A stretch of DNA of 64,000 nucleotides, taken from Phoronis australis. Its lineage: Eukaryota > Animalia > Phoronida. Below, piece by piece: positions 10,317 through 27,176 of the stretch. The notes below the pieces were generated by a model. That model worked only from the letters and a program-made list of their open reading frames with translations. It searched no databases and was not told the origin of the DNA. The stretch spans positions 89,438-153,437 of the forward strand of contig NMRA01000564.1 in assembly GCA_002633005.1 (NCBI GenBank). Reading direction: 5' to 3'. Both the position numbers and the translations under genes were made by a program. Every line of letters begins with the position of its first letter. Position 1 is the stretch's first letter.

Positions 10317-13300
10317 ATGGCGCACTTTCAAGCTGTACTGAACTTTGTACTGTTGGGAGTAACAATATTCATATGCCCGTCGTTGCCGTGTGACTTGCGT
10401 CAATGGACGTCTTGGAGTGACTGCACTGCCCAGCCTTGTCAAGGAGGGGTCCGGTCGAGATCTCGTGATTTATCAGAAGTGACTAGAGACTGCCATGGCT
10501 TGAGATGCTGGGAATGTGGCAAATGTGACCACGCAGTGCACACGTGTCTGGAACACCAGATTTGTTTTAGGGACTTACAAAGTGCAGTTGTTCTTCAAAC
10601 TCTTCCCGGGGAGTGCTCTGAAAAGTCTTTTGAAGGTAAATATGGTTAATCTACTTATTCCTTTTTCGTTAAACAAAACTGGAAAATGTGAATGCCTTCA
10701 CAAAAACCCTGTCGAATTTTGACTGATAAAACTGTTGCTTTGAGTTCGCATAATTTTAATACGAAACTGGAAACAAGTCGACCGTTACTTTCTGTTATAG
10801 GGTCTATGTAGCCAATGTTTCGAAAATTGTCAAATTTCTTTTGAAACGTTTTTGTGCGGATCTGCAAAATTAAATAAATCTTGACTGAGTTAGGAATATA
10901 AGTGATTCCCTGCTTGGCCCTCGGACCAATGCCAGGCCTTTAACCTCCAGACAATGCCAGAAACACCTCGCTAACCACTGAAGGCTGCTGAGCAATGTTT
11001 TGGTTTCGTTCCAACCTTGGTTCCGTGAGAATGTACAAGTGATTCAACCACAAGTTAACGAATGACGAAATGTTGATGTATGAATTGTAACGATCTGCTT
11101 ACATGTAGGATTTTAAATCTTGTTTTGACAATTGCATCCCAAATAGGTCCTTGTGGGTGTATTTTAAAAACCCTTATCCAAAGACCTTTCTTTCTAAAAT
11201 GATACGTTTCTTCAAGCATTCTGAACATAAATCAATACGTATCAAGCCCTCTGTTAACGATAAATAAAGATGTCTTTATGGGACGTTTTTCGTGTGTTTA
11301 TTCCCATTCTTAGTGCGTTGGTTAAATAGTTCCTGTTGAATTGAAAACACGTCGGTATTTGCCGATTTGTAACGAAAACGCCATGTTCATCCACGAGGCG
11401 CTCTTTGATGCTACTTAAGGTGTCTTTCATTTAGCCACATGCTGTAGCTTGCAGAAAGGGAGAGGGGCGCGATGTCACCGGGCATCCACATCGGGGGAGG
11501 GCATCCGATCACTATGAATATTTATTTTAATTCTGACTGATTTGTAGTTTAAATGAATGAAGTTTAAATTTTCTGTTTCACCTTTTTTACTTTTCTTAGT
11601 ACTAGAGTTATACATACTCTCAGAGTGCCTTCCCTGATTGTGAATGGGTCCCGAGTGGCAGGAGTTATACATACTATGTTCAGAGTGCCTCCCCTGATTG
11701 TGAATGGGTCCCCAGCAGCAGGAGTTATATGTAATCCCCTTCAGAGTGCCTCCCCTGATTGTGAATGGGTCCCCAGCAGCAGGAGTTATACATACTCTGT
11801 TCAGAGTGCCTCCTCTGATTGCAGCAGGAGTTTAAAACTAAGTTCCCTAAGTACTGTTATGAGGCATTTGGTTTTGACGATTTTCACCTCACTCGTGTTG
11901 AAAATTCCTGTGTTTAAAATTGCCAATTTCCGTGTAACTTGATAACAAAATGATAAGAGGCTGAAACTCAGAGTTCTTGTTCATTGTGTCATTACTAAAC
12001 AAAAAATGTCTCGGACACATTTAAACGGTCAAATTGAAACAATAGAAACCAGTGAAATAGTAGTAAAAATAAGCTTTTTCAAAAAATTCATCATCACCTA
12101 GTGGTAGAATATAATATCACANGAGCGACGAGGTTGGTTGTTGTCACAAAATATGATAAAGTGACAATCGTGAGGTAACAAGTAGACAAAAGTAGGCCAA
12201 ACACAGACATCAATTCTGGATCAGTTCCCGTCGACTTTTACCAGAGTCGCTCACACCCTATCACAAACAATACCCATCACACGGCAGGCTTGTATAAAGA
12301 TGCCAATTCAACAGAAAATTCAACCTCATCAAACCCTGTCCTCCTGTTCCGCCAGGGCGTCTTACCTCCCTTCAATACAAAAGTCATCTACGGTCGACAG
12401 TAACACTTTTGAAACACATTGGGTGAATCTCGGTAAAATGTAAGAAATGTTGAGTTGTGTTAGTCTCGAGTTTACAGGGCATGCAAGAACCAAACATGGC
12501 TTGTAGAGCAATACACCAAAAAACTGAATTCCTCATTTTTGCTCAAAGTTTCAATGACATACAACAAAGTAGTGAAAATTGTTAGAAAGGATGATTTTTT
12601 AAATTAAAAAAAAAATGTTGGCAGTTTATAATGTCATCCTCATATAAGGGGTGCTCTCCATACCAAAATATGTTTTCAGTGATATTTTTAAGTTGTCTTG
12701 GTGTGCGGTTTGATGACCAAAAAAGCATCGCCAGCATGTTATTTTAGAGCTTACGCGAACATTTTCCTTCAAAAACTTTTTGGTTGCCCCTGGTTACATC
12801 CTAGCTTCGCCTTAACATTCACTGCAATACATGTATACATGTATGTTGATTGTATTCGACAACAAGAAAGTGGTCTCAGACTGGCTTTATTTTATACATA
12901 CCAAAACAATTACAGTAATTGCCTGCATTATGTACATTCCAAACAATAAATGTGATTATGTTGGACTTGCATGTACACTCAGGACCCAGTTTGGTATATC
13001 TCCAGTTAAAGACAAAGTTCTCTTTGGTGGACAGTTTAGATCAGATTCATAGAAACAGCTCTAAACGTTGTTTTAACAATAGTACTACGTATGAAATTGA
13101 AAAACTTAGCACTTCCGTTTCACCCGCGCTCTGTTCAGATCACCCCTGTTGCGCTACGGTTGACAACTGAAGGTGAAGTCGGATATTAAGTGCTAGTCCA
13201 GTGCATGTTTTTATGTGAAGTGTTAAGTGTGCTTGTGTGGAATGAGTTTTCGTAAATCTTTCTCGCAAAATAACTAATATCCAAAACCTGTATTTATTCA

Positions 13301-25300: not shown

Positions 25301-27176
25301 TCTTTATTTATGGAACAGATGCAGTGAAATCCATTATACATTGTAGCACTCCAACCACGTGACCACGCTCTTTAGTGGTCGGCATTTTGCTAGATAAGCA
25401 CCCGAGCATACTCGAGAAACCTACCCGTTTCATGCGCGTAATTTTCCGAGATCTTGCACAACGAATGAAGTGAACACGTGATTCATGCACATCTGGAAAG
25501 GAATACTTCGCGATGTGTTTTTGCAACAACTGCGTTTAATGCGGAAGGTGGTTAATGAGGCAATTTTCCTTTACCCAGATTCGGGTAAATTAATGGGAAA
25601 TTGTGGCAAAGCAAGAAAATTTAACGGAAAACTAAGGGCAAGATATTAGAGAAGCCGCGTCAACGGCGACGTTCACTGAAATATATGAAATATTTTCGCG
25701 GGAAGAATAGGTGACAACCTGGTGTACAAATTTCCAGCATTTGTCTTCGAGTAGGCAAGACTGATGGTGTATATATTTTAGGGTCGACAAAGACTTGGTC
25801 GTAAAAGTTGCAGACTTCGGTTTGTCACGTGACATCTACGAGAAAGAATATTACAGCGTCAGTGATGAGAAACGCCCTCTTCCGATAAAATGGATGGCCA
25901 TTGAAAGTTTGAAATCTGGGATCTTTACAACGAAAAGCGATGTGGTAAGAGTATTTAAATGAAATCACGTACCTAAATCTACGACATCACTCCCACCAAC
26001 GCGTAACTGCTTCTGCTGGATAAATATATGTCCGGCGAGTACGGGCTGTTTCTGTAGGTCTTGCGGTGACTGTGCAGGATCAAACTCCCAAATTAAATTG
26101 CCACCGGACGACAAGCTTAGTGTTTTCACATAAAGACGTTTCCTGCAATTATATCTCGGCGTCTTGGCTTTGTAGAAGTTCGCTCTTGTCCGTCGTTTAA
26201 TTTTAATTTGTTTTGTCGTAACGGCACTTAGGAAATGGGGACGAGCTCCTCCTCCAGTGAAGCTGTGTGCGAAGGGAGGGGGGGCAGGGGGCGCACCTCC
26301 TTTCCACTGAGGAGACCAGAAAAACTAATTACAGCTCAACCTTGTTCTTCATTAATAGTGGGCTTATGGAGTCGTCCTTTGGGAACTCATCACCAGAGGC
26401 TGTGCTCCATATGCTGACGTCAGCAATTTTCAAGTCAAAGATTACCTGACTGAGGGACGACGATTGTCCAAACCAGAGTATGCTCCGACGAAAGTGTAAG
26501 TTAAGAGATCTATGGCTCGCTTTTCGTGATTAACTGGAGACATCAAAATTTAGAAGTGGTTTTGCTCCCACAGCGAAATGCACAGAATAAGCACACTGTT
26601 TTTCGGTTTTTAAAGGGTGTCGCACCCGGTTTTGACTTATTAAGCGGTGACAGACCAACATTCTCCTAACACGGCTGGCAATTTTTAACATTTATAAGCA
26701 TATTTATGTGGTAAATTCACCGATTTTAAATTCAGCGAATGCCTGGAGACAACGGTGAAATTGGCGATTTAGGTTTTGCTGTTTTACAAGTCTGGTCAAA
26801 GCTAATAACTTCAACGCGTCTATCCCATCCAATGATGTTCCCAAGACTATGTTTCTTGACCGTAAAACTGGTGATGTCCCTTTGATATGAGCTGAAATGA
26901 TTGGGATTATTAAGATCATTGTCCTCATTATCGTTATTATTCTGTCAGTTTGTCAACATTGTCGTATTGTATTGTAGATATCAGCTGATGACACAATGTT
27001 GGCTTGAAGAGCCCGATAGTCGTCCTCATTTTAAAAACATTGTCCCTCGCCTCATGCTCATCGTGAATAGCCAATCACAGGCTAAGATTAAGGACGTGCC
27101 AATCATGAAAGTGGAGGACTACTTACAACCATTAACGATGGAACATGTACAAAAAGCTCAGTCCAGTGACGTGTGA
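10317..27176 (+). CDS. MET/RON (HGF receptor)-like receptor tyrosine kinase with ectodomain signal peptide-TSP1-C-type lectin-EGF-IPT x3, TM helix and intact tyrosine kinase; about 973 aa (1027 aa with one optional exon)
   Basis: In-frame GT-AG exons: 10317-10635 (signal peptide, [21 protein letters not shown]1); 13453-13614, 14770-14889, 15128-15247 ([36 protein letters not shown]); [15343-15504 optional]; 15597-15694 (EGF-like); 16158-16288, 17024-17185, 18126-18231, 18699-18868, 19088-19217, 19438-19608 ([40 protein letters not shown]); 21449-21683 (TM + RRKKVRR); 22041-22160; 22382-22465 (GRGHFGKV, VAVKSL); 22765-22949; 24151-24260 ([10 protein letters not shown]); 25782-25944 ([27 protein letters not shown]); 26359-26495; 26978-27176. 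Confidence 0.92.
11605..11832. repeat. Minisatellite, about 60-bp unit x 3.8, in RTK intron 1
   Basis: Repeating GAGTTATACATACT..TTCAGAGTGCCTCCCCTGATTGTGAATGGGTCCCCAGCAGCAG. Confidence 0.9.
13870..14298 (+). mobile_element. Possible solo LTR
   Basis: TGTAAC...GTTAC termini around a slightly GC-richer 430-bp block; no convincing TSD seen. Confidence 0.25.
15747..16030. mobile_element. Foldback MITE with about 95-bp imperfect TIRs
   Basis: TAACAGCTTATTATTTAAAAT..CTTATTCTTAT.AAAATGACA.AGGCAAAAAT.GAATTTCGGG is mirrored by CCCGAAATTCGATTTTTGCCTTTGTCATTTTAATAAGAATAAG..ATTTTAAATAATAAGCTGTTA. Confidence 0.85.
18546..18625 (-). mobile_element. tRNA-derived SINE head (degenerate)
   Basis: The minus strand reads CCCGGGTTCGAGTCCCGATCGGGGC (B-box/T-arm); no full cloverleaf. 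Confidence 0.45.
19983..20253 (+). mobile_element. About 270-bp MITE (CATGCGCGCACCCAG TIR), copy 1
   Basis: TIR CATGCGCGCACCCAG...CTGGGTGGGCGCATG; internal AGAAACAAAA.GTCCGAG and TCCACTAAA are shared with 38463-38729. Confidence 0.75.
24469..24900. mobile_element. MITE with imperfect TIRs and internal direct repeats, in a kinase intron
   Basis: GTGTACCGC.TTG.CCGC...TTAGACCCATGGGC at left and GCCCATGGGTCTAA...GCGGCCAAGCGGTACAC at right; CCTACATC.G.ATTAAT and TATTGGCGCATGC each occur twice internally. Confidence 0.75.

Follow-up and report, generated by a model that had tools for sequence, protein, structure and literature searches.

A predicted C-type lectin receptor tyrosine kinase with a MET-like kinase and a three-IPT stalk from a Sema-less group

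The gene at positions 10317-27176 on the plus strand of the window (the whole 64,000-nt stretch of Phoronis australis DNA that was analysed) likely encodes, on one chain of exons, a type I membrane receptor tyrosine kinase. We propose, with a probability of roughly 0.55, that this single receptor carries a lectin head that likely binds mannose/GlcNAc/fucose-type glycans with calcium, and that multivalent clustering would activate its kinase. The predicted domain order is signal peptide, TSP1-like module, C-type lectin domain, laminin-EGF cap, three IPT domains, TM helix and MET-like kinase. Rebuilt from its coordinates, the chain comprises 19 exons and 18 introns, all GT..AG, and splices to 2922 nt encoding 973 aa, the sole stop codon being terminal (27174-27176); the in-frame chain from signal peptide to first IPT described in the original prediction is thereby confirmed. 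The Pfam scan was done exon by exon, on 19 of 19 exons. Intron 11 (1.8 kb) was judged not to hide an exon, since exons 11 and 12 are continuous against relatives, and tblastn found no second copy of the gene within the window.

All features below lie on the plus strand. Exon 1 opens with an ATG and a predicted signal peptide (aa 1 to ~23, 10317-10385; hydropathy peak at aa 1-27), and the rest of the exon, up to a phase-1 donor (10386-10635), encodes a spondin-type, TSP1-like cysteine-rich module with one WxxW, an RSRSR strand and 10 Cys in aa 25-100. The first half of the module, with its WxxW/RxRxR pattern, matches a TSP1 repeat, and the second half has extra cysteines. Exon 1 matched Pfam TSP1_spondin (E=0.0013; 19.4 bits, below the cut-off of 41) and, in the PDB, the F-spondin TSR 1vex (E=0.0028); its single-sequence AlphaFold model (pLDDT 35) was uninformative, and a homologue search with it yielded none at E<=0.01 among 25 candidates, which is weak evidence. 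A C-x2-C-x4-H-x4-C spacing similar to retroviral nucleocapsid knuckles (E=0.0012) was attributed to chance, and this reading was rejected because the module that contains the spacing is predicted to be extracellular and rich in disulfides. The lectin domain is spread over three exons: exon 2 (13453-13614; Lectin_C, E=0.0014) encodes the N-terminal third with Cys133; exon 3 (14770-14889), assigned by sequence and alone without a Pfam match, the middle with the WSGG strand, Asp181 and Glu185; and exon 4 (15128-15247; Lectin_C, E=0.00012) the predicted sugar-binding loop with EPN 206-208, Asp209, Glu215, Asp216, WND 226-228 and Cys217, Cys231 and Cys239. Exon 4 gave 62 PDB matches at E<=0.1, the best 60 of the 62 being C-type lectin proteins, including SP-D, collectin-11 and MBP-A. 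The domain keeps the four core cysteines, EPN, WND and the acidic residues that we take, with their numbering, to be the calcium ligands by analogy with MBP-A. This full motif set is consistent with the carbohydrate-recognition module that had been predicted; in C-type lectin-like domains that do not bind carbohydrate, it is usually eroded. According to the available text of PMC9630629, an EPN motif predicts Man/Glc/GlcNAc/Fuc binding. From these residues, calcium-dependent binding of such glycans by the head is likely.

It is nevertheless worth weighing a rather unlikely alternative, in which the ligand of this one receptor is a self protein or a matrix component, contacted through the TSP1 module or a protein-binding face of the lectin domain, and the receptor serves in development, adhesion or the guidance of neurites instead of sensing glycans. 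The spondin-like character of the TSP1 module would suit such a role. Against glycan sensing, the sugar affinity of a lone lectin domain is low, and EPN domains may bind proteins instead. The retention of EPN, WND and the acidic calcium-ligand residues in full argues against it and for the glycan-binding receptor that we favour.

Introns 1-4 are phase 1, and a phase-0 intron follows the EGF exon. The original statement that all introns around the TSP1 and lectin exons are phase 1 holds for these four, but the TSP1 module has no exon to itself, being encoded in exon 1 together with the signal peptide, and only its downstream intron is phase 1. It can be hypothesised that exon shuffling placed the TSP1 module and the three phase-1 lectin exons upstream of the phase-1 EGF exon. 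The absence of Sema and PSI was upheld, hidden exons in intron 1 included: when the N-terminal 560 aa of 22 MET-type proteins served as tblastn queries, the IPT exon alone reached E<0.06, a profile built from these same proteins gave a best E of 2.2 over 2951 six-frame segments, and 0 of 60 plus-strand open stretches of at least 33 aa in 5790-13460 matched either domain. Hidden Sema/PSI exons were rejected on these three scans. The position before the first IPT, occupied by PSI in MET and RON, holds an EGF-type cap: exon 5 (15597-15694) encodes a six-Cys laminin-EGF-type cap that leads through C-x-P into the first of the three IPT domains, an arrangement found by alignment in this gene as in its relatives. 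The exon matches Pfam EGF_laminin weakly (E=0.021) and a six-Cys cap profile from nine Sema-less relatives, built without this gene, at E=3.3e-5. Because of this second match, the EGF cap is an inherited part of the family and lies outside the swapped head, in which it had originally been included.

Exons 6-11 and the start of exon 12 (16158-21530; exons at 16158-16288, 17024-17185, 18126-18231, 18699-18868, 19088-19217, 19438-19608 and from 21449) encode the stalk, aa 274 to ~585, with a TIG match on exon 6 (E=1.1e-7). The predicted IPT stalk is thus present, and its precise count is three domains; it aligns to vertebrate MET aa ~657-900, the three membrane-proximal IPT domains of MET, and the IPT that precedes them in MET is absent from the alignment. 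Its identity to Owenia P0026 is 34% over 305 aa. Exon 12 (21449-21683) also encodes, by hydropathy, a TM helix (aa ~591-611, 21530-21592) followed by a basic stop-transfer run, and the tyrosine list places a juxtamembrane Tyr637 in it. Exons 13-19 (22041-27176) encode the MET-like tyrosine kinase and its tail, with PK_Tyr on exons 14-19. The kinase is intact, with all catalytic residues present (GxGxxG 680-685, Lys706, HRD 799-801, DFG 819-821, Tyr827/831/832), and shares ~50-53% identity with MET/RON; among solved structures in the PDB, the activation-segment exon is closest to MET, then to RON. All of the MET-like signatures quoted in the original prediction were found; introns split two of them, [16 protein letters not shown] and FTTKSDVW.

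The gene is no MET orthologue fitted with a different head. In the stalk+kinase tree, which has 36 rows, is unrooted and contains several long branches (P0235, P0238, P0257 and P0144 were excluded as long or gappy), a 99/98 split of 11 rows unites this protein with nine Sema-less relatives, from annelids and bryozoans, and P0055. The outgroup of the trees was three kinases, with AXL/TYRO3/MERTK and the insulin receptor excluded. Placement with canonical MET/RON was rejected by the AU test (p=0.00026; 16 canonical rows plus this protein, the group being taken from the stalk+kinase tree), and the kinase-only trees put the protein outside the MET/Met-LP clade (97/89 and 98/93); a position just inside the MET/Met-LP side was not rejected (p=0.35 for kinase, p=0.15 for stalk+kinase). 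The assignment to a MET-related group therefore stands, outside the canonical MET clade, and the original notion that a MET head was exchanged for a lectin does not. Comparison shows instead that the EGF cap, three-IPT stalk, TM helix and kinase derive together from a Sema-less group, itself related to MET/Met-LP; its members share the stalk and kinase, and most of them the EGF cap as well. Since the EGF exon matches the cap before the first IPT in nine Sema-less relatives, the replaced head was more likely laminin-type than Sema/PSI, although Sema does occur in one protein of the clade, P0055/P0283.

The Sema-less EGF-cap/three-IPT kinases include Owenia CAH1793779, CAH1784899 and CAH1787331, Paralvinella KAK2167282, Watersipora XP_067935421 and XP_067931129, Biomphalaria XP_055874257 and Haliotis XP_071089652; their database names are automatic only ('hepatocyte growth factor receptor-like', 'unnamed'). 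Like this gene, they have three IPT, a TM helix, a MET-like kinase and a C-x-P-type junction, with the six-Cys cap in nine, and the closest four share 36-38% identity with this protein over stalk+kinase. Unlike it, they bear no C-type lectin; by Pfam, their heads are LamG+Laminin_N+EGF_lam (P0007, P0131), LamG+Fz (P0015), F5/8-like, weakly (P0031), Ephrin_rec_like (P0026) or Trefoil+Ephrin_rec_like (P0149), and P0029 is headless, its signal peptide leading directly into IPT. P0055/P0283 has a full plexin ectodomain (plexin/Sema by Pfam for P0283). Glandiceps P0129 and Ptychodera P0138 were rejected as Sema-less members on a fourth IPT and MET-side placement. A self or matrix ligand would find support in the laminin-N, LamG, Fz and plexin heads of relatives, which are of matrix or guidance types, and in the Atlas model of P0026, whose stalk resembles plexin-B. 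A lectin domain was found in 0 of 288 fetched proteins, the Atlas clusters matched by the relatives (among clusters of at least 50 members) were all of plexin/IPT or general RTK type and lacked a lectin, and no homologue with the same TSP1+lectin head was found; the architecture is known from one genome.

We propose that a multivalent glycan surface would cluster the glycan-binding receptor and switch on its kinase; by analogy with RTK biology, clustering would lead to trans-phosphorylation of Tyr831/Tyr832 and then to docking at Tyr956 and Tyr637. An RSRR furin-type site (aa 432-435, 18774-18785) lies in a loop of the second IPT, where 6 of 39 aligned relatives also have a basic motif. Cleavage there would leave the receptor as two chains or allow the lectin head to be shed, and the 'single-chain' receptor first envisaged is not assured. 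HGF binds MET through the IPT region, and an HGF-like ligand or co-receptor might likewise activate the kinase via the stalk, the lectin head only tethering, localising or restraining it, perhaps until shed at the furin site. The RSRR site itself and the headless P0029, which suggests that the stalk-kinase unit may function without a head, are in keeping with this; the free variation of heads within the group, on the other hand, fits ligand specificity set by the head, and we consider activation through the stalk unlikely.

RNA from the same species (runs X1-X3, ~18-19% of each run read, depth ~2) gives thin sense-strand coverage of the lectin exons and the IPT exons, at a similar low depth in X2. 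Exon 2 has a sense-strand depth of 1.7 in X1, 2.0 in X2 and 0 in X3; in X2, exon 3 reaches 0.1-0.5 and exon 4 ~1. The IPT intron 16289-17023 is confirmed by three reads with two starts, in X2 only. Within this fraction, depth is zero at the EGF exon in all three runs (bin 15545-15659), and no read joins exons 4-5 or 5-6. These two observations would suit two genes or two main transcripts, one a secreted TSP1-lectin (exons 1-4) and the other an EGF-IPT kinase with its own start, as would a stop at 15303 on read-through from exon 4, an AATAAA at 15456 inside intron 4 and a signal-peptide-like ATG at 15281. Exon 4 reaches its donor before any stop codon, however, and is only 349 nt from exon 5; the splice sites that make the lectin-to-IPT join are phase-matched, and all four (donors 4 and 5, acceptors 5 and 6) rank in the 99.5-100th percentile against all other GT/AG sites of the gene (leave-one-out matrix). 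The lowest-scoring donor, donor 6, at the 55th percentile, is the one with RNA confirmation. Signal-peptide-like starts number seven in introns 1-5, with one in intron 4, none in intron 5 and none above chance, and intron 1 is equally rich in them; the scanned region 10317-27600 contains 16 AATAAA signals. Together with the similar depth of both halves in X2, this makes a division into two genes or main transcripts highly improbable; the intron 4 signal would still allow a secreted TSP1-lectin isoform of the one receptor. In the older contig run X4, a fourth run of the same species, only repeat pieces are among the matches listed.

Vertebrate C-type lectin receptors use Syk-family kinases through adaptors, and a lectin with a MET-like kinase built into the same receptor would let an invertebrate sense glycans in a single step. 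A pattern-recognition role is plausible, and we lean slightly towards a non-self source of the glycan (microbe or food particle) over self. More tentatively, we suggest that there may be an unrecognised lophotrochozoan RTK family, sister to MET/Met-LP, with interchangeable heads on an EGF-cap/three-IPT/kinase chassis, in which this gene is a germline receptor wiring microbial mannose-type glycans to a MET-like kinase without an adaptor. More widely, a set of proteins mislabelled 'HGF receptor-like' in databases makes up a Sema-less group with exchangeable heads, invisible to a Sema-based survey; such genes should not be counted as MET orthologues, and these natural head-swap variants offer a way to ask how the binding of any ligand is relayed by an IPT stalk to a MET-type kinase. 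The lectin-RTK design is already known from Hydra Sweet Tooth, reportedly described by Reidling et al. in 2000, and only the TSP1 + lectin head is new here. Like this gene, Sweet Tooth joins a C-type lectin-like ectodomain to a tyrosine kinase in one receptor, with four CTLDs against one here; the available text of PMC2680970 and PMC3703292 does not mention an IPT stalk, TSP1 or EGF. Met-LP RTKs of lophotrochozoans and echinoderms have a MET-like kinase on an IPT stalk, and kinase and ectodomain have recombined more than once (Junqueira Alves et al. 2019, PMC6374515, available text). They are defined there by a full plexin ectodomain with Sema, and Sema was the query and key criterion of the survey, so that Sema-less members could not appear in it (PMC6374515). 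The literature searched, subscription kinome papers apart, yielded no account of either this architecture or the Sema-less group. This gene lacks the plexin ectodomain and Sema of Met-LP, and one Met-LP-like protein (P0055/P0283) belongs to its clade. MET and RON have the layout Sema-PSI-IPT4-TM-TK; they share the kinase signature and the activation-loop YY with this gene, which differs in having neither Sema nor PSI and three IPT instead of four. Its kinase tail, which ends in S-D-V, has a single docking tyrosine, Tyr956 in EDYLQP, in contrast to the double tyrosine site of the fetched MET/RON proteins.

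The lectin receptor tyrosine kinase (lectin-RTK) is a real gene and probably a single one, lying on the plus strand at 10317-27176 in a window of animal DNA with a GC content of ~40%. Its 19 exons, set from the sequence, are separated by 18 introns that are all of the GT..AG type (phases, in order, 1,1,1,1,0,2,2,0,2,0,0,1,1,1,0,2,0,2), and the spliced chain translates into 973 aa with one terminal stop. The domain order is signal peptide, TSP1-like module, C-type lectin (exons 2-4), EGF-type module (exon 5), IPT stalk, membrane helix (~aa 591-611) and tyrosine kinase, with Pfam support that is clear for lectin, IPT and kinase and weak for TSP1 and EGF. 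Within the TSP1-like module of exon 1 (10506-10547), a C-x2-C-x4-H-x4-C spacing matched a zinc knuckle (E=0.0012), which we regard as chance.

It is very probable, judging from the sequence, that the lectin and IPT/kinase exons form one gene, since the phases match, the lectin-to-IPT splice sites rank at the 99.5-100th percentile, the gap between lectin exon 4 and EGF exon 5 is 349 nt and there is no convincing alternative start. Two separate genes would accord with the RNA at this join, which is crossed by no reads in three runs of the same species label (X1-X3, sampled to 18-19%) or in an older contig run read whole; this reading is nonetheless improbable. Expression was low in the sampled runs: the splice joint 16288->17024 is carried by 3 reads in X2 and in no other run, the depth of X2 on exons 2, 3, 4 and 6 is 0.1-2.7, with the first mate always on the minus strand, X1 covers only exon 2 of these, X3 covers none, and the exon 5 bin has zero depth in X1-X3 as sampled. 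Interspersed intronic repeats (15750-16030, 16370-16720, 19980-20250), abundant in RNA from other loci, dominate read depth.

The predicted absence of Sema and PSI domains held in homology, profile and open-stretch scans. A tblastn of 22 MET-type proteins, each cut to its N-terminal 560 aa, gave E<0.06 in the window at the IPT exon only, and a profile of these N-terminal regions reached a best E=2.2 among 2951 six-frame segments. None of the 60 plus-strand open stretches between the upstream neighbour and exon 2, intron 1 included, matched Sema or PSI. This neighbour is a complete EXOG-like mitochondrial nuclease gene (775-5786, plus strand; Endonuclease_NS and Exog_C in Pfam), whose 3' end at 5786 limits the room for extra 5' exons. 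Intron 1 also holds a short tandem repeat (11605-11821, unit ~58 nt) with open frames of 118-124 aa on both strands, the plus-strand one without a Pfam match.

The closest proteins over stalk plus kinase, among the matches listed, are Sema-less proteins and not METs: Owenia P0024/P0026 (38% identity), Paralvinella P0015 (37%) and the database protein P0007 (36%). The kinase profile search was followed through its best 120 of 7065 matches, and a search with a profile built on the stalk and kinase of 8 relatives through its best 150 of 18,746 (E<=1e-30), so that the relatives are a top-ranked sample of the databases, not a census. Their heads, assigned from Pfam scans of 19, 33 and 5 chosen proteins and from cluster names, comprise LamG with laminin-N and laminin-EGF (Owenia P0131, P0007), LamG with Fz (Paralvinella), laminin-EGF (Watersipora P0035, Biomphalaria, Haliotis), a weak F5/8-like match (P0031), ephrin-receptor-like repeats (Owenia P0026), trefoil (Owenia P0149) and a full plexin ectodomain (P0283, in the same 90% cluster as P0055). 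P0029 (Logan) is headless, running from signal peptide to IPT and kinase, and P0275 (Ptychodera), whose kinase falls on the MET side, has a weak LDL-receptor class A match before its IPT. The lectin domain itself matched none of the 288 fetched proteins (best E=0.85).

In a kinase-only tree of 75 rows, the lectin-RTK falls outside a clade of 52 rows (support 97/89) to which MET, RON and most Met-LP (MET-like kinases under a plexin ectodomain) belong; support is 98/93 after removal of 27 long or redundant rows. A stalk-plus-kinase tree of 36 rows, excluding P0235, P0238, P0257 and P0144, gave a 99/98 split uniting the lectin-RTK with nine Sema-less relatives and P0055, several long branches being flagged. 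The named members of this lectin-RTK clade are all annelid or bryozoan, with molluscs attaching loosely in the 75-row tree, so that the gene probably comes from a lophotrochozoan. The original prediction of a MET kinase with a replaced head was not sustained by this phylogeny, as the AU test rejected placing the lectin-RTK with 16 canonical MET/RON rows (p=0.00026). A position on the MET/Met-LP side as a whole was not rejected (p=0.35 for the kinase, p=0.15 for stalk plus kinase), all these p values being optimistic because the tested groups were read off trees.

Members of the Sema-less group have a cysteine-rich cap that closes with C-x-P and leads straight into the first IPT, unlike MET/Met-LP, which have an additional IPT ahead of the three proximal ones. 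A cap profile of nine relatives, excluding the lectin-RTK, matches its aa 241-278 (E=3.3e-5), from which exon 5 is read as part of the inherited stalk. Of the proposed swapped head, TSP1 and lectin therefore stand as the predicted novel portion, joined at a phase-1 intron, and the EGF exon does not. The swappable-head group is a more general result than the single lectin-RTK, whose function is predicted. The Met-LP survey demanded a Sema domain and for that reason could not list the Sema-less group (PMC6374515), and a 2022 review gives the same picture (PMC10084454). The precedent for a lectin-RTK, as presented in citing papers (PMC2680970, PMC3703292), is Hydra Sweet Tooth, which has four CTLDs. 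No description of the present architecture was found in the open literature, and it looks undescribed.

The lectin domain retains four core cysteines, EPN, WND and acidic positions that we take, by mannose-binding protein numbering, to be calcium ligands; exon 4 has 62 sequence matches in the PDB, those shown being C-type lectin proteins. The EPN motif predicts binding of mannose, glucose, GlcNAc and fucose, according to PMC9630629. We favour, at roughly 55%, a mechanism in which a multivalent mannose/GlcNAc/fucose-type glycan would cluster receptors through the lectin, the clustered kinases would trans-phosphorylate Tyr831/832, and Tyr956 and Tyr637 would then recruit SH2 proteins. The kinase has all catalytic motifs and an activation-loop tyrosine pair, and the closest PDB structures to its activation-segment exon are MET and RON (119 matches). 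Beside the retained lectin motifs, a head that binds a self protein or matrix ligand is a rather doubtful alternative; a ligand bound by the stalk, which is shared under varied heads, with the head merely tethering, is unlikelier still. Furin cleavage may yield a two-chain receptor or release the head, at an RSRR site found in a loop of the second IPT, where 6 of 39 aligned relatives have a basic motif. The C-terminus, S-D-V, fits the class I PDZ motif pattern.

Elsewhere in the window, three tandem minus-strand paralogues (30516-32540, 52952-56445, 60984-62960) encode a small secreted cysteine-rich protein of ~130-140 aa, with a signal peptide, CACNNC near the start and CC/CxC near the end. 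The two main exons appear open in all three, none of the six exon stretches matches Pfam at E<=1, and the three may belong to an unnamed family of cystine-knot-like or defence peptides. Near-identical local duplications at 61460-61869 and 59627-60348 (207 nt at 98.6%, 144 nt at 97.9%) could be of recent origin, or artefacts of the assembly. Two diverged element copies (43850-45885 and 48696-50345, 76-81% identical) are likely transposon-derived; in the first, a frame for a THAP domain spans 43978-44343 (E=6.6e-9), and the second has a stop near its start.
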